This document shows positions 13,846 through 45,849 of a stretch of DNA of 64,000 bases, piece by piece. The stretch is from a virus. Its lineage: Duplodnaviria > Caudoviricetes. Under the pieces are notes generated by a model that had not been told where the DNA came from, made no database searches, and was given only the letters and a program-made list of their open reading frames with translations. Both the position numbers and the translations under genes were made by a program. Positions within the stretch are counted from its first letter, which is position 1. Each line of letters starts with the position of its first letter. Where the stretch lies: IMG/VR virus record IMGVR_UViG_3300025961_000012, positions 13,109 to 77,108 of that record; one strand, written 5' to 3'.

Positions 13846-14029
13846 GGCAGGCCAGGAGGCCACGAAGTGCGCCAACCTGCCGGCCGAGGTCATGGCCGCG
13901 GCGCTCAAGGAACACGTCGAGGCGGCGGATCGATTTGAGCGGATGCTCGACTACATGGATTCGCTGAAGTCCGGAAAGGTCGAGCCGAAGCTTTTGGTCA
14001 ACGCAACCCCTGAATCCCTACCGACATGA
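13715..14029 (+). CDS. Hypothetical helical protein overlapping the portal 3' end by 131 bp (+1 frame)
   Basis: Across the overlap this frame has G/C-ending codons (ctg gac ccg acg gag gcg) while the portal frame has A/T-ending Pro/Ala/Val codons; ATGA-coupled to 14026. Confidence 0.7.
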   Translation: MLLQLQTRSLDPTEAASLQSWLQSPQSLLFRQLLQTQCLLAQFEAGQEATKCANLPAEVMAAALKEHVEAADRFERMLDYMDSLKSGKVEPKLLVNATPESLPT

Positions 14030-14223
14030 AACCGCATCAGGAACGAGTAATCGAAGAAAAGGCACAACTGGACGAAAGACTCGCAAAGCTCAACGAGTTT
14101 GGGCGCGGGACCATCTTTCCGAATTTACCCGCAGCCGAACAGGAGCGACTTCAGCGCCAGTCCAAAATCATGGACCAGTATTCGGTCGTGCTCGGTGAGC
14201 GCATCGCCGCTTTTACGCCATGA
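14026..14223 (+). CDS. crAss001_48-like small protein
   Basis: PHQERVIEEKAQLDERLAKL..F.....F..L...EQ.RL..Q...M..Y..VL.ERI pattern. Confidence 0.8.
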   Translation: MKPHQERVIEEKAQLDERLAKLNEFGRGTIFPNLPAAEQERLQRQSKIMDQYSVVLGERIAAFTP

Positions 14224-15036
14224 GCAAAATCACCGTCATCCACCATTCCGCCGATTTTGACGGACTATTCTGCCGCGAGATAGCGCGCAAGTTTCTGCCG
14301 GATGCAGAACTGATTGGTTGGGATTTTAGGGACGAGCCGATCAACCCGTTCAAAATCGGTGAGATTCTTTACGTGATGGATCTCCCGCTGGATCGACCGT
14401 TCGGATTCAAGTTTGAAGAGCTGATAAAAGATCCAGCAGATTACATCGGCAAAAACAGAATTGGAAACGCAGAGCAGATCATCTGGATCGATCATCACAA
14501 ATCATCCATCGAATCACACCCAGAGGATATCGACGGCATTAGGATTGACGGCGTGGCGGCGTGCCGATTGGCGTGGCAGTGGTTTGCGAACCCAAACATG
14601 AAGTATAGGTTTTTCCCAGAAAAACAAGGCTTCATTGACCGCAAGGTGTCCGAACCGTGGGCCGTACGCCTCGCCGGGGAATATGACATCTGGGACAAGC
14701 GCGACGCGGACGCCGAACTATTCCAGCACGGACTGCGAAGCGAGGAACTTTACCCGGGAATTTGGGAGGCTCTGCTCGATGAACAGAACCGATTCGATAA
14801 TAATGTCGTGCGATTGCTCAATCAAGGTCGCGGCCGGACTGACGCCGGAACACGACGCCTGTTTCGGCTTCAACTGGACCGGCAAGGAATGGAACGTGAG
14901 TCTTTATCATGCGCCCGGGAAGGAACATCACGACCTTTCGCTCATAGCTGTGAAGCATGGGGGCGGCGGCCACCGTGGGGCGTGCGGGTTCAAAACCAAC
15001 AAGCTCCCATTCCTTCCACTCAACGCACCCGAATAA
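14220..15036 (+). pseudogene. DHH/DHHA1 phosphoesterase, frameshifted (probable internal deletion near 14828)
   Basis: HHSADFDG, MDL, IDHHKS, AACRLAW, YDIW in the 14220 frame; C-terminal DHHA1 (WNVSLY...DLSLIAVKHGGGGHRGACGF) in the +1 frame after ...LLNQG. Confidence 0.8.
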
Positions 15037-15039
15037 TCT

Positions 15040-16521
15040 ATGCCACGCGAATTTGCCGACGACAAAAAGAAGAAACCCGCCGAGGCCCCGCCGGCCAAAG
15101 AGGATCAGACTCCGCCGCCGGTCAAAGCGGACGAGAAACCGCCCGACGAGAAGAAGCCCGCAACGCCGACAGCCGAGGAACTTGCCGCGCGCGCAGAAGA
15201 GATCTCAGCGTCGATGTTCCCGGTGCCTGGCAAAAAGACCAAGCCGCCAGAGGCGAAGCCCGAAGACAAGCCGAAAGAGCCAGATGCCAAAGAGCCTGAA
15301 GCCAAGCCACCTGAACCAGAGCCCGAGAAAAAGCCGGCCGCCAAGAAACCGCTCCCGCCACCAATCTCCGAGGCCGTAAAACCTGAGTCACTTCAGGCTC
15401 CAGCAGCACAGCCGGAAGCCAAACCTCCGGTTACGACCGATCTCAACGAGGACGACGAGGAAACGCTCGCCGCCCTGGCCCGAATGGAGCGCGACGGCAA
15501 AGCCCCCCGCGGAATTGTTGATCGCACGAAACGCTTTTGGGCCGATGAAGCCGATTACATCGCCGCATGGGAAAAAGCCAATCCTGGCGCCGCCTTCGAT
15601 CTCAATGACGAAGCTCACGCCGAGTTCTACGATAAGAACGAGCCCCGGTACGACGAGCAGGAATTCAAGCGCGCGGCCAAACTGAACCTGAAGGAACAGA
15701 GCAAACGCGAGATCAAGGAGGAACTCAAAAAGGAGACCGAAGCCGAGACGTACGAGCGCGAGATGCGCGAGCACGTCCCCAAGAACGCCGCAGCAGTCAG
15801 CACCGCCCTCACAGAGATGGTTGCCGATGCCGGCTTCAAGGATTTGCTCAAGGACGGCAAACTCACGAAGGAAGTCGAAGCGGAGATCGACAAGGCCAGC
15901 CCTCACGCGCGCGCGATCCTGCATGAAGAAGCGCAGTTGCTCGCCGCGCAGATTTCCGAGGTCGACAAGCTCGAGCGCTTCGCCGGGAAGTACCAAATGG
16001 ATCCGAATTTTTCCGTGAAGGTCGCCAGCGGTGCCTACGTGCAACCGCACCGGATGCTCGCCGATTTCGTTCAAAACCTGGAACGCGAGATCGCCGCGCT
16101 GCCACCGGAGGAGACCGCCCGCGACGGGAAACGCTTCGTCACCCAGGAGGAATTCATGCGCGAAGTCGACAAGATCAGGGCGTCGCCCGCGCCGCCCGCG
16201 GCCAAGTCGAAAGCGTTCGATGCGCTCTCCGCCGGCTACTACACGATCGGCTGGGAAGACATACGCGTGGCCCTCATTTCCCAGCACTCGACGCGCGCAC
16301 GGGCCAAAATCGACACTTTTGGCGGAATCAAAAAGTCAGATCCAGTGTCTCAACCGGCAAAAACAAGTGCCGCAGCGACACCAGCGGCCACGCCCGAAAC
16401 CAGAGCCGCTTTCAGGCCTCCGTCGGTCTCGTCGGCGTCCGATAACACGGACACGACAAAAAAGGCGCCGCATCAAAGCGGAAAAACTGCCGACGACGTT
16501 GCCAGAAGCATGTGGGGCTAA
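15040..16521 (+). CDS. Putative capsid scaffolding protein
   Basis: Acidic, P/E/K-rich disordered N-terminus and helical core immediately upstream of the capsid candidate. Confidence 0.6.
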   Translation: MPREFADDKKKKPAEAPPAKEDQTPPPVKADEKPPDEKKPATPTAEELAARAEEISASMFPVPGKKTKPPEAKPEDKPKEPDAKEPEAKPPEPEPEKKPAAKKPLPPPISEAVKPESLQAPAAQPEAKPPVTTDLNEDDEETLAALARMERDGKAPRGIVDRTKRFWADEADYIAAWEKANPGAAFDLNDEAHAEFYDKNEPRYDEQEFKRAAKLNLKEQSKREIKEELKKETEAETYEREMREHVPKNAAAVSTALTEMVADAGFKDLLKDGKLTKEVEAEIDKASPHARAILHEEAQLLAAQISEVDKLERFAGKYQMDPNFSVKVASGAYVQPHRMLADFVQNLEREIAALPPEETARDGKRFVTQEEFMREVDKIRASPAPPAAKSKAFDALSAGYYTIGWEDIRVALISQHSTRARAKIDTFGGIKKSDPVSQPAKTSAAATPAATPETRAAFRPPSVSSASDNTDTTKKAPHQSGKTADDVARSMWG

Positions 16522-16575
16522 GAGAGTTGATGCGAAAGCGCGAGGCAATTACGCCCGCCATTTCGCACAACTCTT

Positions 16576-18459
16576 ATGGCCTTGCCTGACAACGTAGTCA
16601 TCTCGGAGCGGTTCACAAAGCAGTGTTCCCCGGTCATCTCGACCAATTACGACACCTGCGGAACCGTCACCCGCGCGACCGTCGCGCATCTCACACCATC
16701 CGACCTGGACGCCATCTTCTCCCCAGGCGGCCTGTTCGCCGATCTCGACGCATGGTTCAAGCACTCCATCGAAATGAAGGCGTGCGGCGTACGCATCAAC
16801 ACGATGTACGACTGGATCATGGCCAACGCCGATCGCACCGAATATCGCGGGGCCGTGTCCGGCACGAAGGGCGTCAAAACCGAATCTCTCCTGCACCCGT
16901 TCATACTCGGGTCACAGGAAACCGTCCTCAACCCGTCGTACTGGAAGGTTGTCGCTGGCGCCGCCGGCACGACCATTGAAGCCTCTGCCGGCATTCCGAC
17001 CACCCTGGCCACCCAGTCTGGCGCCGGTACCACGACGTTCCTGAAACAAGGAGCTGTCGATGGGGGAACGAATCCGGACTCGCAGACTACCGAGGACGGA
17101 TCCACGGTCATCGCCTACAACACGACTGGCGTGCGCTGGATCCGGCTCACGAACCGTTTTGGCATCCCAGCCGACCCGGGCCTGTTCCTCCCGCGTAACA
17201 CCATCCATCTGTTCACGCGCAGCGCGGCCGGTGTATCGCAGCACGGCCAATGGCGCATCCTAAACTCCGTCGCCGGCACAACGGCCGACGGCAACGCCGC
17301 GATCGACGTCGCCATTTACAACGAGAACGGCGGCAGCGCCGAAGCCTACGACACCACGCCCAGCTCGACGCTCGGCGGCGTCGTCGTGCCAGGCGTCAAC
17401 AACGTCGATGACTACGAGAAATGGTGCCACAACCGCACCACGCTCGACCCGCGCAAGCGCGTGCTGTTCTGGGTGCAAACGTTCCGTAACTCGCGCTGCG
17501 TCGATTCCGAGTATCAGGCCGTGTTCAAAAAGCTCCTGATGACGAACCCGGCCTTCAAGGAATTCGGTGACCTCGATCTGGCCGAGCGCAATCGCCAGGA
17601 CGAAGCCGCTGCCCAACGTGAGTTCGTCAACTCGTTCTTCTTCAACAAGCCGATCTCCGCCAACCAGACGCAGGCGCTCTGGCAGAACCTCGAGCCCATT
17701 TATTCCACGGAGGCCTCCGGGCTCACCCTTGGCCTGGGCGGCAAGCTCATGGGCCGGCGCGCGAACTTCGTCGGCGTCAAGGAACAGCTCAGGGAGTGCG
17801 GTCGCGTGTTCGATCTCCAGAACCAGGCGCTGCGCATCGAGGAATGGCTGGACCTCAACTACAACATCAAACGCGCCCGCGAGACCGGCATGAACGGCAA
17901 GAAGGTCACGGACATCGACTGGTGGACCAATTCCCAGTTCCGCGCCCTGTTCCAACAGGCGTATGTCGAATACGCTGCGGCCAAGTGGGGTGCGCAGGCG
18001 CGCTGGGATTTCGAGTACAACAAGGTCAGCGAAGCCGGCATTCTGTTCGATTCCTACACGTTCCAGTATCCGAGCGGCATCCGCATCAACCTCCTGTCGA
18101 ACGATTTCTTCGACGATTTCCTGGACCAGTTCTACGACCAATCCATGACCAGCCGCGGCAATCTCCTGCTCGCCCTGGACATCGGCAAGCCCGGCCCCAA
18201 CGGCGGCACGATCTTTTACTCGCAGATCGCCGCCAACCGCATGACGACCCAGACCGCCACGATCGAACAAGCCGCGCGCCTGGACTCGACGCTGCGCTGC
18301 GTCATGAAGATGCCGTCGCTCGAGCAGACGCTCATGTCTGAGAGCGGCACAGTCGTTGTGAGCTGTCCGTTACATTCTGCATGGATCGAAGGAATTTCTC
18401 TGGCGAAACCCACCGCAACGGGCAAATCCGCTGCGCCCACCTACACGGATCTCTACTGA
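16576..18459 (+). CDS. Putative major capsid protein (627 aa)
   Basis: Follows the scaffold-like gene, strongly biased (high-expression) codon usage, followed by a strong intrinsic terminator. Confidence 0.7.
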   Translation: MALPDNVVISERFTKQCSPVISTNYDTCGTVTRATVAHLTPSDLDAIFSPGGLFADLDAWFKHSIEMKACGVRINTMYDWIMANADRTEYRGAVSGTKGVKTESLLHPFILGSQETVLNPSYWKVVAGAAGTTIEASAGIPTTLATQSGAGTTTFLKQGAVDGGTNPDSQTTEDGSTVIAYNTTGVRWIRLTNRFGIPADPGLFLPRNTIHLFTRSAAGVSQHGQWRILNSVAGTTADGNAAIDVAIYNENGGSAEAYDTTPSSTLGGVVVPGVNNVDDYEKWCHNRTTLDPRKRVLFWVQTFRNSRCVDSEYQAVFKKLLMTNPAFKEFGDLDLAERNRQDEAAAQREFVNSFFFNKPISANQTQALWQNLEPIYSTEASGLTLGLGGKLMGRRANFVGVKEQLRECGRVFDLQNQALRIEEWLDLNYNIKRARETGMNGKKVTDIDWWTNSQFRALFQQAYVEYAAAKWGAQARWDFEYNKVSEAGILFDSYTFQYPSGIRINLLSNDFFDDFLDQFYDQSMTSRGNLLLALDIGKPGPNGGTIFYSQIAANRMTTQTATIEQAARLDSTLRCVMKMPSLEQTLMSESGTVVVSCPLHSAWIEGISLAKPTATGKSAAPTYTDLY

Positions 18460-18477
18460 TCCCGAACGACATTTCAC

Positions 18478-18510
18478 AGCCCGCTGGCGAACCCGGCGGG
18501 CTTTTTGTTT
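18478..18510 (+). terminator. Rho-independent terminator after the capsid gene
   Basis: AGCCCGCTGG-CGAAC-CCGGCGGGCT stem-loop followed by TTTTGTTT. Confidence 0.9.
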
Positions 18511-18511
18511 G

Positions 18512-18544
18512 CCGCTTGACAATTCGATCAGTGATCCGCAGCGT
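18512..18544 (+). promoter_or_regulatory. CCGCTTGACAA-N16-CAGCGT promoter, leaderless to GTG 18553
   Basis: TTGACA 18516-18521, 17-bp spacer, CAGCGT 18539-18544, start codon 8 nt later. Confidence 0.75.
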
Positions 18545-18552
18545 CGTCTCGC

Positions 18553-19452
18553 GTGAATTATTACAACGAGAACGATCCCAGGGCCGCTGCGTGGCTTCGG
18601 GAATTGATTCGCGCCGGGGAGATTTCAATGGGGGAAGTGGACGAGCGCAGTATAGTCGAAGTCAAAACTCATGAACTCAAAGGATATGCCCAATGCCATT
18701 GGTTTGCCGGAATTGGCGGTTGGTCTCTTGCCCTTCGACTTGCCAGATGGCCCGACGACAAGCCCGTCTGGACAGCCTCGCTCCCATGCCAACCATTCAG
18801 CACAGCCGGGGATCAGCGAGCGGAAGCGGACGAGCGCCACCTCTGGCCAGTGTTCGCCGAGCTTGTTCGGCACGGGCAGCCTTAAATCGCGTTTGGAGAG
18901 CAGGTTGCGAGCAAACTTGGACGTGAATGGCTCGCTGGAGTTCGAGATGATTTGGAAGGAATGGGGTATGAAGTCGGGGCTTCCGATCTGTGCGCTGCGA
19001 GCGTCGGAGCGCCGCACAGACGACAACGGCTCTACTGGGTGGCCCACTCCATCCGCGATCGACTCAGTTCGCGGGGTGGAGTCCAAGGAGGCGCGAAAGG
19101 CACGGGGATCACACACGGGCACGACGTTGAACGATGCGGCAGCAATGGCGCCCTGGCCGACGTGCAGCGCACGGGATTGGAAGGACACGCCGGGAATGGC
19201 GACAACGGGCACGAACCCGGACGGAACGGAGCGAACTCGCCTGGATCAATTGCCGCGAGTCGCAACCCTTGGGATTCCTACGACCTGCTCCCCTGCATCG
19301 ACGGAAAAGCGCGGCGCGTTGAACCCGGAACATTCCCGCTGGCTCATGGGGTACCCGGCCGCGTGGGGCTCCTGCGGGGATACGGGAATAGCATCGTGCC
19401 GCAAATCGCGGAAGTCTTCATCCGTTCCTGTGTCGAAGCCATAGGCATCTGA
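18553..19452 (+). pseudogene. dcm: C5-cytosine DNA methyltransferase (alpha chain) interrupted by an in-frame TAA at 18883-18885
   Basis: FAGIGG (motif I), LPCQPFS (IV), then QP*IAFGEQV (VI) in the same frame, APHRRQRLYWVA (VIII), LRGYGNSIVPQ (X). Confidence 0.85.
18671..19444 (+). CDS. Nested alternative-frame MTase subunit (EcoHK31I beta-like; TRD/motif IX)
   Basis: Intact 257-codon +1 frame with repeated WPTP/WPTC..RDWK boxes and LNPEHSRWLMGYP (motif IX-like, absent from the alpha frame); start may be later. Confidence 0.75.
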   Translation: MNSKDMPNAIGLPELAVGLLPFDLPDGPTTSPSGQPRSHANHSAQPGISERKRTSATSGQCSPSLFGTGSLKSRLESRLRANLDVNGSLEFEMIWKEWGMKSGLPICALRASERRTDDNGSTGWPTPSAIDSVRGVESKEARKARGSHTGTTLNDAAAMAPWPTCSARDWKDTPGMATTGTNPDGTERTRLDQLPRVATLGIPTTCSPASTEKRGALNPEHSRWLMGYPAAWGSCGDTGIASCRKSRKSSSVPVSKP

Positions 19453-19459
19453 ATCCGCC

Positions 19460-19489
19460 TTGCGTTCCCTCGTCTGTCGCGGTTACGGT
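19460..19489 (+). promoter_or_regulatory. Putative leaderless promoter (TTGCGT-N18-TACGGT-N6-ATG)
   Basis: Hexamers read directly; ATG at 19496. Confidence 0.5.
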
Positions 19490-19495
19490 GCGGCC

Positions 19496-19894
19496 ATGAT
19501 TCAGTACTTCAAGAAGTATTCGCCACAGCAGGCAATCATCTTCTCCGACGGCAGCGGTTTCAGGGGGTTCCAGCTTGTGAACAACGAGGTCGGGATCCTG
19601 GCTACCGAGGATCCTCGAATCATCCGTGAGATCGAAGCGTGCATCGCCGGCCAACGCGGCGGCGCCGAGAAGATCACATCCGAGGAGTTTCTTTCGTTGC
19701 AGAGTCAAAAAAAAAGCAATTTGCAGCCTCCTTGGAGAGAGGAGTGGCAACCGCGCAAGCTGCCCCCAACAGCGTCAGGCGGCTCCCTCAGCCAGCCAAG
19801 TGCTGCGGTCACTGAGGCGCCGGCGCCGCGGGCTGTGCCGCCGGCGGATGCGGAGAAAAGTTTCAAGCCGAAGACGAGCAAAAGCAAAACGTGA
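19496..19894 (+). CDS. Hypothetical (probably virion/head-associated) protein
   Basis: MIQYFKKYSP...; globular N-terminus and P/A/K-rich tail; coupled to the next gene. Confidence 0.7.
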   Translation: MIQYFKKYSPQQAIIFSDGSGFRGFQLVNNEVGILATEDPRIIREIEACIAGQRGGAEKITSEEFLSLQSQKKSNLQPPWREEWQPRKLPPTASGGSLSQPSAAVTEAPAPRAVPPADAEKSFKPKTSKSKT

Positions 19895-21501
19895 TCACGT
19901 ATGCCTCATTCAGAACGGCGATAAGGCAGGAACTTTGGCCATTCCCCGGCGAGGCAAAGAGCCTCCGGCCAGCGCACGACAAGGCGTTTCTCGAGGCGAT
20001 GATCGCGCTTCAGCGTTGGGTGCCAGAACTGCGCGTCAATCATACGAGCGTGTTTCCGGCCTGTTCGACATACGTGCAGTGCGCGCTGTCGGTTGTTGAG
20101 GCGCCGGTCGGCGAGATCAAGCGGGTTTACACGATCGCGAATGGTGAGTGGTGCGATCGCGTGTTCTACAGCAGCAGAGCACACATGGAGGTGCTCAAGT
20201 GGCAGCGGTGCCTGTTGACGCGGTTCACGTCCCCGGAGAACGTCGGAATGCCGGCGCTCCAGCAGGGATTCAGATTTTCGGAGGCTTCCACGGATTCCCC
20301 CGCGGGACGCGCGCGTGCGGGCATCTGGTCGATCAACCGCAAGCGGTTCCACCTGGCGCCTTGGCTTCAAAGCAATGAATCGCTGGTGATAGAGTGGGAC
20401 GGCGAAAAGAAGGAATGGCTCGACGACGATGTTCTGGACCAGAACTACTTCGACGCCGAAGCGGCGGCCGTCGTGAAGCTTTACGTGCAGAAGTCGCACG
20501 AGCGGGATTTCGGGTGCGACATGGCCAAGATACGGATGCTGGAGCAGGACTACGGGCAGAAGCTCGGCGAACTCATGCACGGCTGGCGGGAGAAGACGCG
20601 CAACCAGGAGAACACGGACGCCGAGGAATTGAACGTGTGCTCGCCGACGAGTGCGGATCTCGCGGACGATGCACCTATGGTTCCCACTGATCAGACGATT
20701 GTCGCCTACATAGCGGACATTGACGGCGGCGCCGCCACTGTCGAAGTGGCGAACTTGGTGAAGTCGTGGGGCCCGGCTTATATCGTGAGCGGCGGCGACA
20801 ATTGGTACGGCAGCGCGATTACGAAGGAAGCTTTGGACGCCTCAGTCGGTCCCAGTTACGGAGATTACATTTTCCCCTACTTGGGCACGCTGGCCACCGG
20901 GGCAGAACGGACGAACGCATTCTTTCCGGCTGTAGGTGACCATGACCGGGATCCCGTCGGCCGGCTGCCGGTGTTCCTGAACTATTTCAACCTGCACAAG
21001 CCGTATTACGATTTCGTCCAGGGGCACGTTCACTGGTTCATCGTGGACAACGGGCTGAACCAGGCTGACGTGCTCGTCCAGGCGGACGGGAACACGTCCA
21101 CCAGCGTGCAGGGCGAGGCGTTTAGGCTGAAAATGGCTCTTTCGACGGCGCGCTGGAAGATTGTCGTCATTGGGGCGCCACCGCACTCTTCCATCAAGGA
21201 GAGCAACACGGCATACGCTGCGCTGCGCTGGCCCTACAAGGCGTGGGGCGCGGATTTGGTGCTGACCGGCGACGATCACCTTTACGAGCGCCTACTGGCA
21301 CCTGAGGGCTATCCGCTCATCGTAGCCGGCTGGAGCGGCCGGGCGCTGGTAGCCAGCGGTTCACCGATCGCCTACAGCCTCGTTCAGTATGACGCGGATT
21401 TCGGGGCGCTGAAGATCACCGTGTCGTGCGACGAGTTCAAGGTCGAGGCGATCAACCGGGTTGGAGTGCTCATCGACACTCTGACGCTGACGAAACCATG
21501 A
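19891..21501 (+). CDS. Fusion of an N-terminal putative head-tail adaptor region and a C-terminal calcineurin-like/purple-acid-phosphatase domain
   Basis: C-terminal motifs IADIDG, GGDNWY, AVGDHD, WKIVVIG, LVLTGDDHLYER follow the PAP layout; N-terminal ~245 aa assigned by position only. Confidence 0.7.
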   Translation: MITYASFRTAIRQELWPFPGEAKSLRPAHDKAFLEAMIALQRWVPELRVNHTSVFPACSTYVQCALSVVEAPVGEIKRVYTIANGEWCDRVFYSSRAHMEVLKWQRCLLTRFTSPENVGMPALQQGFRFSEASTDSPAGRARAGIWSINRKRFHLAPWLQSNESLVIEWDGEKKEWLDDDVLDQNYFDAEAAAVVKLYVQKSHERDFGCDMAKIRMLEQDYGQKLGELMHGWREKTRNQENTDAEELNVCSPTSADLADDAPMVPTDQTIVAYIADIDGGAATVEVANLVKSWGPAYIVSGGDNWYGSAITKEALDASVGPSYGDYIFPYLGTLATGAERTNAFFPAVGDHDRDPVGRLPVFLNYFNLHKPYYDFVQGHVHWFIVDNGLNQADVLVQADGNTSTSVQGEAFRLKMALSTARWKIVVIGAPPHSSIKESNTAYAALRWPYKAWGADLVLTGDDHLYERLLAPEGYPLIVAGWSGRALVASGSPIAYSLVQYDADFGALKITVSCDEFKVEAINRVGVLIDTLTLTKP

Positions 21502-21812
21502 GGTTCATCGATCTCAAACCGGAGTTCGTGCAAAGCTCAAAGAGCGGCGAGAATCGCAAGGGCACAGCAGTGTGGTCATTGTGCCCGTGCGGTTGCGGGT
21601 CTGGTCTGCTTATCGCGCTTCGGAACCCGCTCGACGGAGGGCCTCCGGACGGTCCTGAAGTGTGGGGCGAAGGTCTGACGGATCGCTGGCAAAGAACCGG
21701 CGAAGACTTCAATACGATCAGCTTTGAACCGTCTGTGCTGATGTGGGAGGACAAAAAGGCCGGAAAACAGCACTGGCATGGATGGATCAGAAATGGTGAG
21801 GTGACAGCGTGA
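21498..21812 (+). CDS. DUF6527-like protein
   Basis: LCPCGCG...PLDGG...WQRTG..F..ISFEPSV......HWHGWIRNGEV pattern; ATG at 21498. Confidence 0.7.
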   Translation: MRFIDLKPEFVQSSKSGENRKGTAVWSLCPCGCGSGLLIALRNPLDGGPPDGPEVWGEGLTDRWQRTGEDFNTISFEPSVLMWEDKKAGKQHWHGWIRNGEVTA

Positions 21813-22033
21813 GACGCCGGTCATTCTTCAGCCGGATTGCAGGGTTCGTCGCCGCTGTGGAGCATCTGGAATTAAAATCTGTCCAAGTGGCATTTTGGAC
21901 ACAGAACACTCGCTCGTCGAGATGCGTGGATCCTGAATACGAGAAACTTCTCTGTAATCTGGAGAGCCGACCAACATCAGCCCTTAACGTGCCGAATATG
22001 TTCGATTTTCTGAAGGAGCACACCAAGGCATGA
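21809..22033 (+). CDS. Small protein with twin-arginine-like N-terminus and a capsid-derived 18-aa segment
   Basis: MRRRSFFSRIAGFVAAV; VAFWTQNTRSSRCVDPEY vs capsid VLFWVQTFRNSRCVDSEY; coupled at both ends. Confidence 0.7.
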   Translation: MRRRSFFSRIAGFVAAVEHLELKSVQVAFWTQNTRSSRCVDPEYEKLLCNLESRPTSALNVPNMFDFLKEHTKA

Positions 22034-24465
22034 AGTTCGACCAACTCGACAACCAGCCGTGCCTGCTCCCCCAGGTGAACGAGGAATCGTGTGAAAGCAC
22101 GAGGCTACCGGTCCAGGAGGGGCGCCTCGAGCTGCGTCCCGAGGTTGCCGTCGTGGCAGTTCTGGGCACGGTCCAGTATCGAACCTTCCTGATCGCCAAC
22201 GGCGTCGAGCGCGAGGTTACATCCGGGCTCAGCTATCGCTCTGGCAGCACCGTAATCGCAGTCATCGGCGCCATCGGCGGCAATGCGACGGGCATCTCCG
22301 TCGGTATCGTCACGATTTCCGTCGAATGGCAGGGCCTCGAGGCGTTCGGCCAGCTTCAGGTCGTTGACTCCTGCGACAACATTTCGAACGGGCTGGAGAT
22401 CGTCATCGACAACTCGGAGTCGATGAATCAGGCGTTTGGCGCGCCATACGGCACCAAGCTTGATTTCGCGAAGTTCCTCGCCAAACAGTTCGCCGGAGAG
22501 GTCGACGTGCGCAAGGACATCGTTGGGCTGACCACGTTCGCCGTGTCGGGCCAGGTTGTGGCGCCTTTGACGGCCGATAACATCGCCGTCGGGACCGCCA
22601 TCATGGGTGTCGGCTTCGTTCCGGAGCAGACAGACATCCATGCGGGGCTCGAAACGGCCATCGCGGAACTCGCCGCGGCGAACGTCGACCGCCGCGTTAT
22701 CCTGCTGATCACGGACGGCCAGCATAACGACGACATCGAGCCGCTGCAGACGGCACTCCAATTCCGGTCTGGTGGCGGCGTTCTCATTGTCATTGGCCTG
22801 CGCGCCGGCCTGGAGGCTTTCATGCGCCTCGAGAAGCTCGCCAATGGCGGATTCTTTATCTCCGCCTACGACGGCCCGACCGCCGAGGACGCCAAACGTT
22901 ACGTGAGCGGGCTAAAGGGCTATCTGTGCGCCGGCAACTGCTGCCCGGAAGGTGACATCATCGTCGGCCAGGGCAAACTCAACTACGAGGATTGGCTCAA
23001 CTGGGATAACATCGGCAACGTCGATCTGATTGGAAACGGTTTTTACGACCTTATCCCCGGGCACGGTCTGTTCGTGGATCTCGTGGGAAGCTCGGCGCCA
23101 TGGCAGGGCGGGTTAATCAGCAAGAAATCGTTCACGTTCCAAAACGGCGTCAACTACAAGCTGAGTTACAAACTGGCCGGCAATCAGCGCGCGGACGCCA
23201 CGGGCTACTCGGTCAAGGTCAATGCCGGCAGCGTCGCGACCGCCACGCACGCGATGAACGATTGGCGCCAGGACTTTACGACCTACGACTTGAGTTTCTT
23301 GGGCGATGGCACTTCCGGCCAACTGATCTTCATCCAGGAAACGGTCTCGCCTGCGCCGGCGGCTCAAGCCTTCGGGGTTTTGCTTGATGACGTCACGCTC
23401 ATCAACGATGACACGGACGAAATTCTGTTCACCGAAAGTTTCGACAACGAGAATCTGACTTACGTGCCGCCCGCTTGCGGCATGGGCACAGTCTACGGAC
23501 AGGGTTACGGTGGCGGTTACGCCTACGGGACGTGCTGCTACGGTTACGGGTGCCTGGCTGAACCGGTCAAACAGCAGAACCCGGATCCCATGCCGCCAAC
23601 GGATCCCGAGACGGAGCCCGATCCGTTCTGGATCAGCACGCAGTCCTACACGGCAAGCTGCCCCGTTGGAACCACGGGCGCCGACGTGACACGCTCGGCG
23701 AGCTACAAGAGTTTCATCAGCGCGGCCGATGCCAACGCAAAAGCCCTGGCGCTGGCTCAGACCGCAGCCGAGGCGGCGCTGAACTGTGTGAGCCCGCCCG
23801 TCAACGGCGATCTCATCAACATGCACGCCATCCGCGGCAGGCATACGACAAAGATAGGCTTTGCCGCATTCGGAAAGACGTCCGGCGACGTCTGGAACGC
23901 ATGGAGCGCCTCCGATTACAACAACGATACCCTGTTGAAATCGGACGGGACCGCCTCCTTCGTCACCATCCGAAAGTGTGAAGTCGGCGATTTCACGCAA
24001 ACGGACCTTGTCGCCGTCAATTTCGATGTGTCGCTCGACCATCCGGACGCCATGTACAAGATGGGCCAGGCGTTCTATCGCAACGATTCGATCACGCCGA
24101 AAGACGAGGCGCTGTTCTTCGACGGATTACCCGAAGGCAATTATGAGGTCTACGTTTACGGCCACGGCGCTGACAACGCGCTGCAGGTCGGCCATTACCA
24201 GGTTCGCACCGGTAAACTCACAGGAGATCTGGCATCTGGATTCGTGCTCGATCCTTTCACCAACACCGTTTACCCAACGCTCGACACGTCGAACACGGAC
24301 AGCTACCTCGACACCGCCTGGGCTGAAAACGTCCAGTTCGTGAAATACTCAGTCACGATCGGCGCAGGGCAGACCGGCATCTGCATCATTTCCGCCAGCG
24401 CATCCGGCGTGGATCCCGGGCGAATCAGCGTGCTCATGGGCGTGCAGATTCACAGAGTGCCATAA
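22030..24465 (+). CDS. vWA (MIDAS) domain virion/adhesin protein with Ig-like and carbohydrate-binding-like modules
   Basis: IVIDNSESM (DxSxS), TDIHAGL, VILLITDG; flanking beta-rich and Cys-rich modules. Confidence 0.8.
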   Translation: MKFDQLDNQPCLLPQVNEESCESTRLPVQEGRLELRPEVAVVAVLGTVQYRTFLIANGVEREVTSGLSYRSGSTVIAVIGAIGGNATGISVGIVTISVEWQGLEAFGQLQVVDSCDNISNGLEIVIDNSESMNQAFGAPYGTKLDFAKFLAKQFAGEVDVRKDIVGLTTFAVSGQVVAPLTADNIAVGTAIMGVGFVPEQTDIHAGLETAIAELAAANVDRRVILLITDGQHNDDIEPLQTALQFRSGGGVLIVIGLRAGLEAFMRLEKLANGGFFISAYDGPTAEDAKRYVSGLKGYLCAGNCCPEGDIIVGQGKLNYEDWLNWDNIGNVDLIGNGFYDLIPGHGLFVDLVGSSAPWQGGLISKKSFTFQNGVNYKLSYKLAGNQRADATGYSVKVNAGSVATATHAMNDWRQDFTTYDLSFLGDGTSGQLIFIQETVSPAPAAQAFGVLLDDVTLINDDTDEILFTESFDNENLTYVPPACGMGTVYGQGYGGGYAYGTCCYGYGCLAEPVKQQNPDPMPPTDPETEPDPFWISTQSYTASCPVGTTGADVTRSASYKSFISAADANAKALALAQTAAEAALNCVSPPVNGDLINMHAIRGRHTTKIGFAAFGKTSGDVWNAWSASDYNNDTLLKSDGTASFVTIRKCEVGDFTQTDLVAVNFDVSLDHPDAMYKMGQAFYRNDSITPKDEALFFDGLPEGNYEVYVYGHGADNALQVGHYQVRTGKLTGDLASGFVLDPFTNTVYPTLDTSNTDSYLDTAWAENVQFVKYSVTIGAGQTGICIISASASGVDPGRISVLMGVQIHRVP

Positions 24466-24468
24466 ACG

Positions 24469-24501
24469 CCGCTTGACAATGCCAGTTGGGTTTCACAGCA
24501 T
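24469..24501 (+). promoter_or_regulatory. CCGCTTGACAA-N16-CAGCAT promoter for the glycan cassette
   Basis: TTGACA 24473-24478, 17-bp spacer, CAGCAT 24496-24501, GTG 9 nt later. Confidence 0.75.
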
Positions 24502-24510
24502 CCGCCCCCA

Positions 24511-25254
24511 GTGACTTCATTCAGACATGCTGGCGACCTCGGCGACATCATTTATTCCCTTCCGGCCGTGCGCCATTTTGGCGGCGGCGATTTCCATATC
24601 GAGGCGGCGGAGTTCACGCGCGTTTGCCTGACTCCGAACAGATGGTGTGGCATCGACAGGCTTCTGGCCGTACAGCCATACATCACCAGCGTGCGCTCCT
24701 ATCGCGTCGGCGAGTATTGCACGTTCAATTTGAACTCGTTCAGGGCGCCGCTGAACGCCGCACTTCGCAAGCATGAACAAACGGACAAGAGCCTTTGCGA
24801 TTGGGTTTTGGAAACGCACAACGTTCCTCTGACCGCGAAGGAAACTCCATGGCTCACCGTCGTTCCGAAGACTGTTGCGCCGGTCGTCATCAATCGCACG
24901 GGCGCCGGACGAACGCGCAACGCCTGCTATCACAATTTCAAATTTCCGTGGCACAAAGTCTGGAAGAAATACGGACGTGACGCGGTGTTCATCGGGACGT
25001 GGGCAGAGTACGAGATGTTTTGCGGATCGTGCGGCGAGGTGCCGTATCACGAGACGAAGGATCTGCTCGAGGCCGCGCAGGTGATTGCCGGCGCCAAACT
25101 GTTCGTAGGGAACCAGAGCGTCTGCCACGCGATTGCCCAGGGCTTGTTTCAGCGTGTCCTGCTCGAAGTCTGGGTTGAGGGCGCCAATTCGACGTTCCTG
25201 CGTGAAGGCGTGACGAATGGTTTCGATGAGAAGGTGGAGTTGCCTGAAATATGA
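24511..25254 (+). CDS. GT9/ADP-heptose:LPS heptosyltransferase-like glycosyltransferase
   Basis: HAGDLGDIIYSLPAVR N-terminal motif and LLEAAQVIAGAKLFVGNQS..HAIAQGL C-terminal motif of the GT9 (WaaC/WaaF) type. Confidence 0.7.
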   Translation: MTSFRHAGDLGDIIYSLPAVRHFGGGDFHIEAAEFTRVCLTPNRWCGIDRLLAVQPYITSVRSYRVGEYCTFNLNSFRAPLNAALRKHEQTDKSLCDWVLETHNVPLTAKETPWLTVVPKTVAPVVINRTGAGRTRNACYHNFKFPWHKVWKKYGRDAVFIGTWAEYEMFCGSCGEVPYHETKDLLEAAQVIAGAKLFVGNQSVCHAIAQGLFQRVLLEVWVEGANSTFLREGVTNGFDEKVELPEI

Positions 25255-25667
25255 AGGAGAAAACCGTTCTCGTTACTGGTTGCTTCGACGTGCTCCACCG
25301 CGGGCATATTGAGCTTTTGTATATCGCCGCCGAACACGGAAAAGTCGTTGTGGGCATCAATGACGACGAGAGTGTTCAAAAACTCAAGGGACCGAAAAGG
25401 CCCGTGAATAATGAGGAGGACAGGCTGTTTCTGATAGAAGCACTTGGCAGCGTGACCTACGGGTTCATCATTTTCGACGTGAAAGTGGACAAGGCGATCA
25501 TGGACATCAAGCCGGACATTTGGATGAAAGGCGGCGATTACACGATGGAAACTCTGAACAAGGACGAGGTTGAGGCTGCGCGGAATGTTGGAGCGGAGAT
25601 CATCATTATTCCAACGTGCAAGGGCTATTCGACAACCGAGACACTCAAGAAACTGGAGGCAGAATGA
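25251..25667 (+). CDS. RfaE/HldE domain II-like sugar-phosphate nucleotidyltransferase
   Basis: TGCFDVLHRGH (HxGH), VVGINDDESVQKLKGPKRPVN, IKPDIWMKGGDY, GYSTT. Confidence 0.85.
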   Translation: MKEKTVLVTGCFDVLHRGHIELLYIAAEHGKVVVGINDDESVQKLKGPKRPVNNEEDRLFLIEALGSVTYGFIIFDVKVDKAIMDIKPDIWMKGGDYTMETLNKDEVEAARNVGAEIIIIPTCKGYSTTETLKKLEAE

Positions 25668-26173
25668 GCGAAACAGCCAAACACCGCGATCAGGTCGCGG
25701 AATTCACTGTGGGCAACGGCGTGGACCTTGGATCTTCCGGCGACGGGATCGTGCCATGGGCCATCCAGGTTGACCTGCCGAGCGACGAATATCTCCGCTA
25801 CAACCCGAAGCGCCCGCAGGATGCGATACACTGGCGCGGCAGCGCGCTTCACCTGCCGTTTCAGGATCGGGTGCTCGACTTCGTGCATAGCTCTCATCTC
25901 CTCGAGGACTTTGAGGACTGGGGACCGATACTCAAGGAATGGGATCGGGTGCTGAAGGTCGGCGGTTACATGATCATCGCCGTGCCGGACCACGCCCGGT
26001 TCCGCGCGGCCGTTGCCCTCGGGCAAGGTGACAATCTCAATCACAAGCACGAGTCCCACGTCGGCGAGCTGCCAAAGTATCTTCACACCTACAGGACTCT
26101 CGTTGACCGGTTTGTGAGCAGCGACCCAAACGAGTATTCGATCCTCTATGTCGGCGTCAAAAATCCCGTATGA
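25664..26173 (+). CDS. Class I SAM-dependent methyltransferase (Methyltransf_11-like)
   Basis: VDLGSSG motif I, LPFQDRVLDFVHSSHLLED, EWDRVLKVGG; ATG at 25664. Confidence 0.8.
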   Translation: MSETAKHRDQVAEFTVGNGVDLGSSGDGIVPWAIQVDLPSDEYLRYNPKRPQDAIHWRGSALHLPFQDRVLDFVHSSHLLEDFEDWGPILKEWDRVLKVGGYMIIAVPDHARFRAAVALGQGDNLNHKHESHVGELPKYLHTYRTLVDRFVSSDPNEYSILYVGVKNPV

Positions 26174-26892
26174 AAGCACAAGTCATCACCGTCTCCAGCC
26201 ACGATCCCGTCCAGTCCTATTATCACTTCGGCGCCTTCAAAAAGAGCCTGGCGCGCTTCGGCGTTGAACCGACCATCCTTGGCCCGGGGGAACCATGGCG
26301 CGGCCTGATGACCAAACCGCGGCTTCTGCAAAAGTTTTTGAGCGAGAGCCGGCATAAAAGCGACAACATCATCGTGACTGACGCATGGGACATCATCTTC
26401 ACCGCGCATCCCGACGAGGTGTGGGCGGCGAAGGAGTTCGATGCACCGGACGCCGTCATGTTCAACGCCGAGATGGGTTGCTTCCCGCGGGCTGATCTGG
26501 CTGATCGATTCCCGGATCCGGGCACCCCTTACCGATTCCCGAACTCCGGGTTCATGGCGGGCACGGCGAGTCAAATCCTCGCAATCCTCGACAGCATGAA
26601 TCTGAATGCCATTCGGGACGACACGCAGGAGCCCGACGGATCATGGTTCAATCCGAACGATCAGGAGTATTACACGCTGGCGTTCCTCCAGCAGCCGGTG
26701 AAGATGGTTCTGGATACGCACGCGCGCGTTTGTCAGTCATTCTCTGGAAGTGCGCTCAGCGATTACGTCCTAGTCGATGAGGGTCGCGTCACAAACAAGC
26801 GTACGGGTTGCAAACCACTCGTTTGGCATTTCAACGGGAACTCGAAGAACGACATTTTGCCTGAACTCCTGAAGCACAACCACCTTGCATGA
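26170..26892 (+). CDS. GT-A glycosyltransferase resembling the procollagen lysyl hydroxylase (PLOD/LH3) GT domain
   Basis: IVTDAWDIIF, MFNAE.GCFP, RFPNSGFMAG, DQEYY, LD...CQ, HFNG motif series. Confidence 0.75.
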   Translation: MKAQVITVSSHDPVQSYYHFGAFKKSLARFGVEPTILGPGEPWRGLMTKPRLLQKFLSESRHKSDNIIVTDAWDIIFTAHPDEVWAAKEFDAPDAVMFNAEMGCFPRADLADRFPDPGTPYRFPNSGFMAGTASQILAILDSMNLNAIRDDTQEPDGSWFNPNDQEYYTLAFLQQPVKMVLDTHARVCQSFSGSALSDYVLVDEGRVTNKRTGCKPLVWHFNGNSKNDILPELLKHNHLA

Positions 26893-27428
26893 ACCTCCTC
26901 ACGCTCACTGGTAAAATCAACGTCCAGGGCTTCCTCCACGAAGCCGAGATGGAAAAGCTTGTCGAGCTGGGCATCAACAAGGACGTGCTCGAGGTGGGCA
27001 GCTTCATGGGCCTGTCGGCCTACTGCTTTGCCATCGCCGCCAAGAGCGTCATGTGCGTGGACACGTTTTCCGCCAACACAGCCGGCCAGCAGCAGATGGA
27101 GACACTTCAGACGCTCGCCGCGTTCGACGAAGCCGTCGCCAGGTTCGCCAACGTGAAACGCTTCGTCGGGACGTCCGAACGGGCGGCAGGGTTTTACGGC
27201 ATCCCGGGTCAGTTCGATCTCGTGTTCCTCGACGCCATGCACACCTATGAGGACGTCAAAGCAGACATCGATCGCTGGTGGCCGCGGGTTCGTAACGGCG
27301 GGACGATGGCCTTTCACGACTATCGGCACGACCATTTCCCAGGCGTCGAAAAGGCGGTCGACGAGAAGTTTGGACCGGCGCCCGACGGCACGACGATTGG
27401 AACCTTGAGGTGGATCGAGAAAAAGTGA
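26889..27428 (+). CDS. Class I SAM-dependent methyltransferase (Methyltransf_24-like)
   Basis: VLEVGSFMGLS, FDLVFLDAMHTYEDVKAD...W..V..GG..AFHDY. Confidence 0.85.
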   Translation: MNLLTLTGKINVQGFLHEAEMEKLVELGINKDVLEVGSFMGLSAYCFAIAAKSVMCVDTFSANTAGQQQMETLQTLAAFDEAVARFANVKRFVGTSERAAGFYGIPGQFDLVFLDAMHTYEDVKADIDRWWPRVRNGGTMAFHDYRHDHFPGVEKAVDEKFGPAPDGTTIGTLRWIEKK

Positions 27429-27440
27429 CAGTGTGGCAGG

Positions 27441-28919
27441 GTGAAAGCGCCGATTTGCCTGATCACGCCACCGTCTTGCTTCCTCATGGATGAGCGGGTT
27501 TTCGTGTCGCTGGGTATACTGAAAGTGGCCGCCTGTCTGGAACAGGCCGGGCATCCCGTTGAGATGGTGGACCTGTCCGGCATCCAGAATTTCGAAGATT
27601 GCATGCGCGATCACGCCGGCCAAAGCCCTTGTTCAACGTTTGGGATCACCGCCACCACGCCCCAGATGCCCGCGGTAATGAAGATCGCGACGGCAATTCG
27701 AGCGACTCGCCCGGACGTTCGAATCATCCTCGGAGGCCCCCATGTCACGCTCGTCAACGCTGCGCTCAAGCGCGAGCGCAAGATTGGCGCCCAAGGCAGG
27801 GCGACGCGCGCGTTCGCGAAGTTGCTCGAGGCGTTCGACGTGCTGGTTTGCGGGGACGGCGAGGACGCCATTTTCGCCGCAATTGTTCCCGAGCCAGAAA
27901 AGGTCATCGACGCGGACGATCCGAAATCGGCGCTCTGGATGACAAACGACCGGCTCAACGAGCTTCCGTTCCCGGCCCGGCATCTGGTGGACATGAGCAG
28001 TTATCACTACACCATCGAAGGAGAGCGTAGCTTGAGCCTTATCGCGCAATTAGGGTGTCCGTTTTGCTGCACGTTCTGCGGCGGCCGCGAATCGCCGATG
28101 CTGCGCAGGATCCGCACGCGCACCACGGAGAACATCATCAAAGAGGTTTTGCACCTGCACCAAGACTACGGCGCCCGCGGGTTCATGTTCTATGACGACG
28201 AATTGAACGTGAACCCCAGCATGATCGAACTCATGCACGGGCTGCGGTTCGCCCAGGACCTGGCTCAAGGAGAGTTCAAGATGCGCGGGTTCATCAAATC
28301 CCAGCTTTTCACGGACGAACAGGCGGATGCGATGTATGGCGCCGGGTTCCGCTGGATCCTCGTCGGGTTCGAGAGCGGGTCCGAGCGCATCCTGACGAAC
28401 ATCAAAAAGAAGGCGAACCGGGCGGAGAACACCCGCTGCATGGAAATCGCCAAACGGCACGGGCTGAAGGTCAAGGCGCTGATGTCAGTCGGGCACGCTG
28501 GCGAGAGCGAAGAGACGATCGAGGAAACCCGGCAGTGGTTGCTCGAGGTGAAGCCCGACGACTTCGACGCGACGGTCATCTCGGTTTATGCTGGCACCCC
28601 GTACCATGACTTCGCGCGAGAGACCAAGCCGAACATCTGGACCTACACGAGCGAGAACGGGGACCGCTTGCACAGCTTCGAGATGGATTACTCCGAGGAC
28701 GCCGGTTACTACAAAGGCAAAATCGGAGAGTATCAGTCCTACGTGTTCACCGATTTTCTGAGCCCGGAGCGGCTCGTCGAGCTGCGAGACAATCTGGAGA
28801 CGAGCGTGCGCGAGAAGCTCGGGATTCCATTCAACCAGTCGGCGGCGTCGATACAATACGAACATTCGATGGGTCAGCCCGGCAACCTTCCCCGCCACAT
28901 TCTCAGACGTAGCGCATGA
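27441..28919 (+). CDS. Cobalamin (B12)-binding radical SAM enzyme (class B methyltransferase-like)
   Basis: N-terminal B12-binding domain (SLGILKVAA, GITATT, IILGGPHVT, GDGE), GCPFCCTFC CxxxCxxC, FYDDELN, VGFESGSERIL. Confidence 0.9.
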   Translation: MKAPICLITPPSCFLMDERVFVSLGILKVAACLEQAGHPVEMVDLSGIQNFEDCMRDHAGQSPCSTFGITATTPQMPAVMKIATAIRATRPDVRIILGGPHVTLVNAALKRERKIGAQGRATRAFAKLLEAFDVLVCGDGEDAIFAAIVPEPEKVIDADDPKSALWMTNDRLNELPFPARHLVDMSSYHYTIEGERSLSLIAQLGCPFCCTFCGGRESPMLRRIRTRTTENIIKEVLHLHQDYGARGFMFYDDELNVNPSMIELMHGLRFAQDLAQGEFKMRGFIKSQLFTDEQADAMYGAGFRWILVGFESGSERILTNIKKKANRAENTRCMEIAKRHGLKVKALMSVGHAGESEETIEETRQWLLEVKPDDFDATVISVYAGTPYHDFARETKPNIWTYTSENGDRLHSFEMDYSEDAGYYKGKIGEYQSYVFTDFLSPERLVELRDNLETSVREKLGIPFNQSAASIQYEHSMGQPGNLPRHILRRSA

Positions 28920-29908
28920 AAATCGGAATCTTTCTATCAAGCCTAGGCGGAAGCCCCCTGCAGGCCGGGCTGGAGCGTGGGTTTGTCCAGTTGGGGCATG
29001 AATTGGTGGACGGCGGGAAGCCGTGCGATCTGCTCGTTGTTTTCAATCAAACAGCTCATGATCCGTCGTATTGCTACCCCGGCTTTCCGGACCATACCGG
29101 GCCGATGGCGTTCATCGACTGCGCGGAGTATGGGTATTTCAGGCGACTGCCAGGCATCGTTGGCCATTATTGGAACGCATTCGCCGCGGGCTCAATGGTT
29201 CACGACACGAAGAACGTCGTGCAGCAGACACGGTTGAAGAACTGGCTCGAGGGAAGGAGCTTCCCTTACTTCATTCGCGAGTTCAGCAAGCACGTCGTTT
29301 TCCCGATCAACTATCACCCGATCGATTACCCGCTTTATTACCACAGCGAATGCCACCAGAAGCCGGACCGCGAGGAGTATTTGAAGCGCGAACTCGACCT
29401 GTTCGTGAGCTGGGGGGCGAGTCATCCCTGGCGGATGCAGATCACGCAGGCGCTGCGGGATTGCCACACGCGCTGCGAAATCTTGGTCCTCGAGGAGAAC
29501 GGGACGCCGCGGATGCGGCAGCGTGATTTCTTCCAGCGCACGCGCGCGGCGAAGTGCTCGGTGTCGTTCGACGGTTACGGGTCGTCGTCCTTCCGGCTGC
29601 ACGAGGTGCTTGTGCGATGCCTGCTGTTGGCCGGACCCATGAGCATTGACCGTTACGCCCCGCTGGTGGACGGGGTGCATTTCATGGAATACGCGGTCGA
29701 TGCGGTCGGCGAGGATTTCGTTGGGACGAACGTGTGCAAGGTGCTTCGGCAGGCGCTGGCGGACCCGGAGGGAAGCTTTCGGATGTACGACGCGGGTTAC
29801 AGACATTGCATGGAGCACTACACCGAAAAGGCGACCGCCGAATACGTCCTGCGCACCGTCGAGGCGCACGACTGGACGAAGGTAACGCCGCTTGACAATC
29901 CTGCGTGA
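28916..29908 (+). CDS. GT-B glycosyltransferase-like protein (CgeB/Glyco_trans_1_2-like)
   Basis: RELDLF.SWG.SHPWR, FFQRTRAAKCSVSFDGYG..SFRLHEVL, PLVDGVHFMEY, YRHCMEHYT. Confidence 0.7.
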   Translation: MKIGIFLSSLGGSPLQAGLERGFVQLGHELVDGGKPCDLLVVFNQTAHDPSYCYPGFPDHTGPMAFIDCAEYGYFRRLPGIVGHYWNAFAAGSMVHDTKNVVQQTRLKNWLEGRSFPYFIREFSKHVVFPINYHPIDYPLYYHSECHQKPDREEYLKRELDLFVSWGASHPWRMQITQALRDCHTRCEILVLEENGTPRMRQRDFFQRTRAAKCSVSFDGYGSSSFRLHEVLVRCLLLAGPMSIDRYAPLVDGVHFMEYAVDAVGEDFVGTNVCKVLRQALADPEGSFRMYDAGYRHCMEHYTEKATAEYVLRTVEAHDWTKVTPLDNPA

Positions 29909-29920
29909 GCGCGGCAGCGT
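29888..29920 (+). promoter_or_regulatory. CCGCTTGACAA-N16-CAGCGT promoter, leaderless to ATG 29928
   Basis: TTGACA 29892-29897, 17-bp spacer, CAGCGT 29915-29920, ATG 7 nt later. Confidence 0.75.
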
Positions 29921-29927
29921 CACAGCC

Positions 29928-30206
29928 ATGAACGACGCGACGGACGAAGCTCCGATTCCATCCCTCCCGATTCTTTCCGAAGAAGAAACGTTGAAGCAAC
30001 CTCGTCAATACCTGAGCCGCTATTGCCCGTCGTGTGGATTCAAGGGTTGTTTCCGCGTCCCTGACGGTCTTTATCTCATAGCGGCACAACTCCACTGTGA
30101 GAGATGCGGACGATCCACTCGCGCCAAACTTAAATGGGACACGGGTTTGCTTCGCAGGATCTGGTGGTGGATCCGATGCCGCCATACCCGAATCAATTTA
30201 GGATGA
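29928..30206 (+). CDS. Small Zn-ribbon protein (CPSC...CERC)
   Basis: Start set by the promoter spacing; coupled to the GT4 gene. Confidence 0.65.
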   Translation: MNDATDEAPIPSLPILSEEETLKQPRQYLSRYCPSCGFKGCFRVPDGLYLIAAQLHCERCGRSTRAKLKWDTGLLRRIWWWIRCRHTRINLG

Positions 30207-45848: not shown

Positions 45849-45849
45849 C

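Follow-up and report, generated by a model that had tools for sequence, protein, structure and literature searches.

A 74-residue gene in a phage late operon and its relatives: small proteins that join a conserved leader to motifs of the major capsid protein

The late operon of an uncultivated phage contains a 74-residue open reading frame (the micro ORF) whose product, judged by sequence comparison, joins the remnant of a conserved twin-arginine-type leader to a segment homologous to the phage's major capsid protein (MCP). The same comparisons place it in a large family of small accessory phage proteins in which a conserved leader is joined to one or more pieces of MCP motif. Keyword searches of the literature returned no description of leader and capsid-piece proteins, in keeping with the preliminary description of this DNA, which knew of none; such searches do not prove absence, and the family is apparently undescribed. 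The DNA analysed, referred to here as the window, is a 64-kb stretch of a viral record of 77,108 bp whose completeness is put at 98%. Its relevant features are listed below.

16576 to 18459, plus strand: major capsid protein gene, 627 aa, predicted HK97 fold (Foldseek, VIA, 270 homologues)
17458 to 17535, plus strand: copied segment, MCP residues 295–320, the most conserved motif of the MCP family
21498 to 21812, plus strand: upstream coupled gene, DUF6527 (PF20137); its probable ATG at 21498 overlaps the stop of a 536-aa gene
21798 to 21801, plus strand: Shine-Dalgarno-like GAGG, 7 nt 5' of the GTG, as read from the sequence
21809 to 22033, plus strand: microprotein gene, 74 aa, GTG start; homologues P0001 and P0002; dN/dS 0.20–0.24
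21809 to 21859, plus strand: remnant of the twin-arginine-type leader, residues 1–17; RR-S-F-F and eight hydrophobic residues, with a predicted helix at 4–18
21859 to 21860, plus strand: junction of a 51-nt in-frame deletion, located by DNA alignment with L001 and L002
21884 to 21961, plus strand: capsid-like motif, micro protein residues 26–51; an extended segment, then a helix from E-Y
21998 to 22024, plus strand: C-terminal helix, micro protein residues 64–72, resembling the tails of P0138 and P0127
22030 to 24465, plus strand: downstream coupled gene, 811 aa, with VWA and DUF5977

The micro ORF is a genuine gene, translationally coupled to its neighbours in the phage's late (head and tail) operon. 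Its GTG start shares four nucleotides with the stop of the upstream DUF6527 gene (GTGA), and its stop shares four with the ATG of the downstream 811-aa gene (ATGA), the order being 536-aa gene, DUF6527, micro ORF and VWA gene. Neither a promoter-like site nor a convincing terminator-like site was found between 19400 and 24700. Together with the 4-nt overlaps, this places the micro ORF in a run of translationally coupled late genes. Two homologues, P0001 (91 aa) and P0002 (81 aa), were found in independent metagenomes, the former in a phage whose flanking-gene DNA is ~96–97% identical to the window and the latter on three short contigs. Substitution patterns indicate that the gene is under purifying selection: dN/dS is 0.24 between the window and L001 and 0.20 overall between L001 and L002, with a value of 0.027 over the 34-codon leader and an unconstrained tail past the motif. 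The couplings, the GAGG, the homologues and the dN/dS ratios bear out the earlier reading of this ORF as a microprotein gene. No Pfam or PHROG family matched the micro ORF. Searches of PADLOC-DB 2.0.0, a 2023 release that may lack assembly blockers, gave nothing at E≤0.1 with the micro ORF, with P0001 and P0137, or with the genes on either side.

The surroundings of the gene vary between phages. The DUF6527 protein (21498–21812; PF20137, called "BubE" in one source) has a C-P-C-G-C-G motif. In L001, a near-identical phage, its gene is replaced by an unrelated 79-aa ORF, and in L004 a DUF6527 gene is again present two genes upstream of the micro homologue. Compared with L001, window positions 11581–30727 show mosaic differences between phages that are otherwise 96–97% identical. 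The sequence of the window differs at 14029–14994 and 21501–21810, and L001 has an extra ~760 bases at window 19894–19921 and ~1.3 kb at 24468–24525.

The 627-aa protein, called major capsid in the preliminary description, is by its predicted structure an HK97-fold major capsid protein, and both Foldseek and VIA gave HK97-fold matches that uphold this identity. The protein has no Pfam or PHROG match, and a sequence search of the PDB with a capsid profile found nothing. An AF2 model (pLDDT 64.8, pTM 0.69) matched the crAss001 capsid in Foldseek (E 2.7e-9, probability 1.00), and VIA aligned it with SPO1 (Z 12.3, rmsd 5.4, 244 residues aligned) and crAss001 (Z 12.1, rmsd 4.6, 243 aligned). The protein has 270 homologues, many on contigs of ~66–86 kb, and its gene comes after a terminase gene (minus strand, Terminase_6C), a 799-aa portal-like gene and a gene for a Lys/Glu/Pro-rich 493-aa protein. 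In an alignment of 36 MCP sequences, residues 293–320 form the most conserved stretch. Mapped onto the capsid model, as the preliminary description had proposed, this region is a strand (301–310) followed by a helix (311–323), just before the long helix at 336–356.

Other parts of the window yielded observations of a separate kind. A C5 cytosine DNA methyltransferase is split between frames at 18553–19452, with a match to the N-terminal half of phrog_363 and PF00145 at 18553–18885 and to the C-terminal half, in another frame, at 18952–19452; a 257-aa ORF (18671–19444) overlaps both halves. The split could be due to a frameshift, the gene could be broken, or the enzyme could have two subunits. 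GC content is 0.48 over 38000–42000, compared to 0.55–0.65 elsewhere, so this part may have been acquired from another source. The drop spans the end of a 1453-aa ORF (35776–40137) and a 456-aa ORF (40134–41504). Finally, 45784–57285 is a single ORF of 3833 aa, probably encoding a giant virion or ejection protein.

Alignment and profile searches indicate that the micro protein and the MCP share this segment through true homology, which has been conserved in the protein and not in the DNA. The match first reported, between micro protein residues 27–44 (21887–21940) and capsid residues 296–313 (17461–17514), is exact in its coordinates and in its 12 identities over 18 positions, and ungapped extension gives 13 of 26 (pair BLASTP E 3e-7). 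All eight invariant residues of the capsid segment (F298, W299, Q301, R304, R307, D310, Y313 and L320) are kept in the micro protein. At the DNA level, 40 of 78 nucleotides are identical and third positions agree at 7 of 26, which is random. The likeness is therefore kept at the protein level only, and the heavy synonymous-site divergence described earlier is confirmed. An HMM of the MCP family, searched against 28,542 six-frame ORFs from the window and 83 related loci, recovered the micro ORF (E 1.4e-4). An HMM built from the micro protein, P0001 and P0002 gave 88 matches at E≤10 in the same ORFs: its own six genes, 77 of the 83 MCP-family ORFs, two other leader ORFs and three unrelated ORFs. 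The MCP-family ORFs matched in this way reach down to ~24% identity with the window MCP. As a shuffled control, the post-leader part of the micro protein scored 21.5 bits against an HMM of 65 capsids, compared to a maximum of 4.4 bits for 300 shuffles. The C-terminal tail looks like the 'Y-D-F-L-M' tails of P0127, P0138 and P0234, and the P0234 tail aligns with the capsid N-arm; the window tail has no significant match to the capsid HMM, its score being equalled by 365 of 1000 shuffles.

An AF2 model of the micro protein, built with a 28-sequence alignment (pLDDT 77, pTM 0.28), has a helix at residues 4–18, an extended stretch at 19–41 that includes the motif, a helix at 42–52 from E-Y and a helix at 64–72. 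A strand followed by a helix is the local pattern common to this model and to residues 301–323 of the MCP model. No complete capsid fold was found in the micro ORF: ~26 residues align, and there is no compact domain in the model. As modelled, the micro protein has the look of a peptide on display and not of a domain with a fold of its own.

The arrangement is not confined to this genome, and the micro protein belongs to one class of a large family in which the same leader is found on different capsid motifs. When 163 MCP-anchored loci were scanned over 10-kb flanks, small ORFs with this leader were found in ~6 lineages, and these carry differing capsid pieces. In L018 and L033 the piece is the N-arm of the MCP (for L018, E 1.5e-18 and 67% identity to its own MCP over 57 aa). 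In L046 it is the C-terminal strand region (18.8 bits; shuffle maximum 3.8), and in L009 the end of the long helix (6.9 bits; shuffle maximum 1.7). The L009 gene (12569–12769) also carries a second piece, which comes from another helix; a piece like MCP 393–411 is followed by one like 318–335, a permuted order. L022 carries a weak copy of the window's motif. The leader gene is present in a single copy per genome, with a single match in the window's 77-kb record, and is absent from most relatives. Three leader genes lie directly upstream of a portal-like gene of 840–870 aa and one lies just after the MCP gene; overall, the position in the genome varies among phages. The nearest capsid sequence to a piece is not the MCP encoded alongside it, so the pieces are old, or have moved between phages.

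Several origins for these genes were considered and set aside. A recent duplication of the phage's own capsid gene is ruled out because the pieces are about equally similar to many capsids, and it is also contradicted by the random third positions and by the L046 piece, which is closer to other capsids than to its own. A diversity-generating retroelement (DGR) or gene-conversion donor cassette is ruled out on the same grounds. One BLAST alignment in L009 raised the possibility that the leader derives from capsid residues ~388–400. This was rejected because the leader HMM has no capsid ORF among its matches. No full-length capsid paralogue with a leader was found within 10 kb of any capsid gene.

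A profile of the 29 leader positions only, run against 1.84 billion cluster representatives at E≤0.001, matched 155 protein clusters, so that members were selected without regard to their cargo. Nearly all of the best 150 are 62–150 aa long with the leader at the N-terminus; a generic search for Tat signals would be expected to retrieve large redox enzymes. The MCP HMM matched 49 of the best 150 of the 155 at E≤0.01 and 35 at E≤1e-4, compared to none when the cargo was shuffled in five replicates. The commonest motif class is the one seen in the window, F-W-x-Q-T-x-R...Y (~25 members), followed by a block at HMM positions 358–446 (~16 members), the C-terminal strands (7) and the N-arm (4–5). 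Two capsid pieces occur together in P0256, P0249 and P0187, and in P0150 they are permuted (HMM positions 70–95, then 36–58). PHROGs for head or coat proteins were matched by another three members, and Pfam Crass_capsid by one. P0157 (105 aa; L167, 3958–4275) lies between terminase and a P22-type portal gene, in an unrelated type of phage. At 74 aa, the window copy fits the family size of ~60–150 aa. For ~100 of the best 150 members the cargo has no traced origin. Cargo of other kinds was also seen among P0123–P0272, namely a YkuD L,D-transpeptidase, a Gp2.5/Enc34-like ssDNA-binding protein and a weak tail-spike match.

It might be supposed that the likeness between micro protein and capsid arose by chance or that the ORF is not a gene, given that the ORF is short, that it matches no Pfam or PHROG family and that a GC-rich genome is full of spurious ORFs. 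Pair BLASTP, reciprocal HMM searches, shuffles, dN/dS, the leader-profile family and conserved homologues in independent metagenomes all argue against this. The shuffles and the family-wide enrichment effectively refute it, and we consider its probability to be negligible.

The leader consensus opens with M-x-R-R-S-F-F-K-x-L; a stretch rich in Ala and Val comes next, and after it an Ala-Pro that is nearly invariant, I-A-F and a basic segment. Measured by curated profiles, this sequence is only weakly Tat-like. PF10518 (TAT_signal) matched 50 of the best 150 members at E≤1, with a best E of 1.1e-4, and the Rieske-anchor model TM_PetC (PF25471) matched 4. The one score shown, that of P0123, was 15.7 bits on PF10518 against a cut-off of 22.7, and no score seen reached the cut-off of a curated Tat profile, those of intact relatives included. 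P0001 and P0002 had no Tat match at E≤10, and the window copy matched no Tat model in Pfam at E≤0.01 or in NCBIfam at E≤1. Family leaders share RR-x-F-[FL], an Ala/Val-rich stretch and a basic c-region with Tat signal peptides and uncleaved Rieske-type anchors (PF10518, PF25471, PF10399 UCR_Fe-S_N and TIGR01409). They differ in being far more conserved than a generic signal, with the nearly invariant Ala-Pro, and in preceding an unfolded-looking capsid piece of 30–100 residues rather than a cofactor enzyme. This degree of conservation far exceeds the needs of a signal. Because Pro follows Ala-x-Ala, the leader is expected to withstand signal peptidase I, and if it does target the membrane it would probably remain as an anchor. 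Atlas features pointed toward small Tat-signal subunits, which we treat as a lead only.

Alignment with relatives indicates that the window copy is a derived allele from which the second half of the leader has been removed. The leaders of P0001 and P0002 are both 17 residues longer, and with these 17 residues the window copy has lost the basic c-region as well as the nearly invariant Ala-Pro. Among 28 proteins of its motif class (class A), the window copy is the only one without the deleted segment, and the Ala-Pro is present in the 27 others. The leader profile aligns with the window copy at positions 3–17 only (E 1.8e-5 within its own genome, 8.6e-4 among the 28,542 ORFs), and with P0001 and P0002 over all 29 positions. 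Compared to L001, the window also has GTG in place of the ATG start, substitutions clustered beside the deletion and a different upstream gene. The preliminary description had proposed a Tat-like RRSFF leader. The RRSFF and the twin-arginine-type family stand, with R-R-R-S-F-F-S at residues 2–8 fitting the Tat motif [ST]-R-R-x-F-L-K; the leader is, however, halved in this copy, and no curated Tat cut-off is reached. The hydrophobic run, which ends at Glu18, is 8 residues in the window copy and ~16–17 in intact relatives. Eight hydrophobic residues are too few for a signal or anchor by the usual Tat/Sec rule, and the window copy lacks the uncharged hydrophobic region of at least ~12 residues and the c-region that a Tat signal has. 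With 17 leader residues deleted, the Ala-Pro among them, export of the window copy is doubtful, and Tat export in particular seems unlikely from its sequence.

The best explanation of these data, to which we give about an even chance, is that a leader-family protein presents a free MCP peptide as a competitive mimic. The micro protein would have no capsid-like domain fold and would present a free copy of a capsid peptide, and would for that reason most likely act by competition. Such a mimic would bind whatever recognises the invariant element in unassembled capsid protein. Its partner may be a capsid-sensing protein, from the host or from a rival, or else the complementary surface on the capsid protein. 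An intact leader, as found in other members, would keep the mimic at the inner membrane or send it through. In the window, the shortened leader would probably leave it cytoplasmic and soluble, or the copy may be in the process of being lost. A capsid-sensing defence protein as target would fit the invariance of the motifs and a distribution that is patchy and mosaic; MCP assembly, of a rival or of the phage itself, would fit the nature of the pieces and the head-module location; and an envelope role would fit the leader. Some points count against a mimic. Since the phage expresses this gene together with its capsid gene, a mimic aimed at MCP could harm the very phage that makes it, and a sensor decoy might trigger the sensor rather than block it. 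The window copy may even be functionless, since some of the most constrained region is missing from it.

Loss of function is the likeliest of the rivals, while still improbable in our view: the window gene would be a decaying, functionless allele of the family, its leader inactivated by the deletion and its frame not yet broken. The 17 missing residues, Ala-Pro included, come from the region with dN/dS of 0.027, GTG replaces the ATG start, the substitutions beside the deletion and the replaced upstream gene resemble a recombination scar, and the family is patchy and easily lost. Decay is harder to reconcile with an intact frame, with the retention of both 4-nt couplings, the Shine-Dalgarno-like sequence and every invariant residue of the capsid motif, and with a dN/dS of 0.24 relative to L001, where a value of ~1 would be expected. 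A more specific counter-defence role is conceivable, and we hold it as a tentative and rather unlikely reading. Here the mimic would be a decoy or sink that binds the capsid-recognition site of a host abortive-infection sensor, and an intact leader would pull the bound sensor away from its targets, to the membrane or the Tat translocon. The motifs copied are those of the capsid protein that are least mutable, which sensors are expected to target, as in the case of the T4 Gol region with Lit and of CapRel; the accessory, patchy and mosaic distribution and the existence of several motif classes also favour this reading. Binding could nevertheless activate the sensor instead of blocking it, the late-gene location probably makes the protein far less abundant than capsid protein, the 2023 PADLOC library gave no match, and we know of no sensor for phages that carry leader and capsid-piece genes.

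Interference with capsid assembly, or its modulation, is about as doubtful as a sensor decoy. The free peptide would occupy the packing site of the strand-helix, the N-arm or the C-terminal strand; with the same low probability, this could mean poisoning the heads of co-infecting relatives, in the manner of Tab or Tai, or tuning or anchoring the phage's own head assembly near the portal. The pieces are elements of the MCP fold (N-arm, strand-helix and C-terminal strand), the genes lie in head modules, several of them directly upstream of a portal-like gene or between terminase and portal, and some members have two capsid pieces, even permuted ones. Against such a role, the phage's own capsid protein would be made alongside the mimic and the pieces show no tuning to avoid it, an N-in/C-out leader would put the piece in the periplasm, away from assembly, and absence from most relatives means that it is not a core assembly factor. 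Less probable again is an envelope protein for superinfection exclusion or lysis timing, in which an uncleaved signal anchor would display a periplasmic piece, for example against the ejected proteins of an incoming phage. The leader is the most constrained part of the protein, with its RR motif, Ala/Val-rich stretch and basic c-region, sub-threshold TAT_signal matches occur in 50 of 150 members and TM_PetC matches in 4, and small size with an N-terminal anchor resembles known Sie proteins and antiholins. An envelope function is at odds with the fact that capsid protein never enters the periplasm, with a place in the late operon and not among early genes, and with a hydrophobic stretch too short for export in the window copy. 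We regard as similarly improbable a combination of signal anchor and mimic that drags a capsid-recognising protein, whether an abortive-infection sensor or a rival MCP, to the membrane or out via the Tat translocon and so clears it from the cytoplasm.

The competitive mimic that we favour has partial parallels in known systems. In T4, a capsid peptide, the Gol region of gp23, is the trigger of the Lit protease, and CapRel senses capsid protein. There too, a short conserved stretch of MCP acts as a stand-alone recognisable element; the Gol and CapRel elements, however, sit in the capsid protein itself, whereas here the element is in a separate gene, has a leader and comes from a different capsid family. 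CpmB, a small protein of the satellite SaPI1, has a capsid-binding C-terminal motif in common with the scaffolding protein of the helper phage. It is likewise a small protein with a motif copied from a head-assembly protein and competing for a binding site, but what it copies is a scaffold rather than a capsid protein, and it is a satellite product that lacks a leader. As a form of defence, Tab of phage JBD26 (PMC10884400) and the Tai systems (PMC11364771) block virion assembly, with tail assembly as the target. There too, mobile elements use small accessory proteins against the structural proteins of a rival; unlike the family described here, these proteins are not copies of their target and lack an export-type leader, and no relation in sequence was seen.

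If the family acts as we infer, this would be the first known case in which phages encode copies of their own capsid motifs as separate proteins tagged with a leader. Genes of this kind are left unnamed by ordinary gene callers and family libraries. As more than 150 clusters share one short leader, the 29-residue profile can be used to fish candidate capsid mimics from metagenomes, and the motif class carried by each member would point to the capsid surfaces that matter. The action of the family, if it is as inferred, would bear directly on how bacterial immune systems sense capsid protein and on how phages compete during co-infection.
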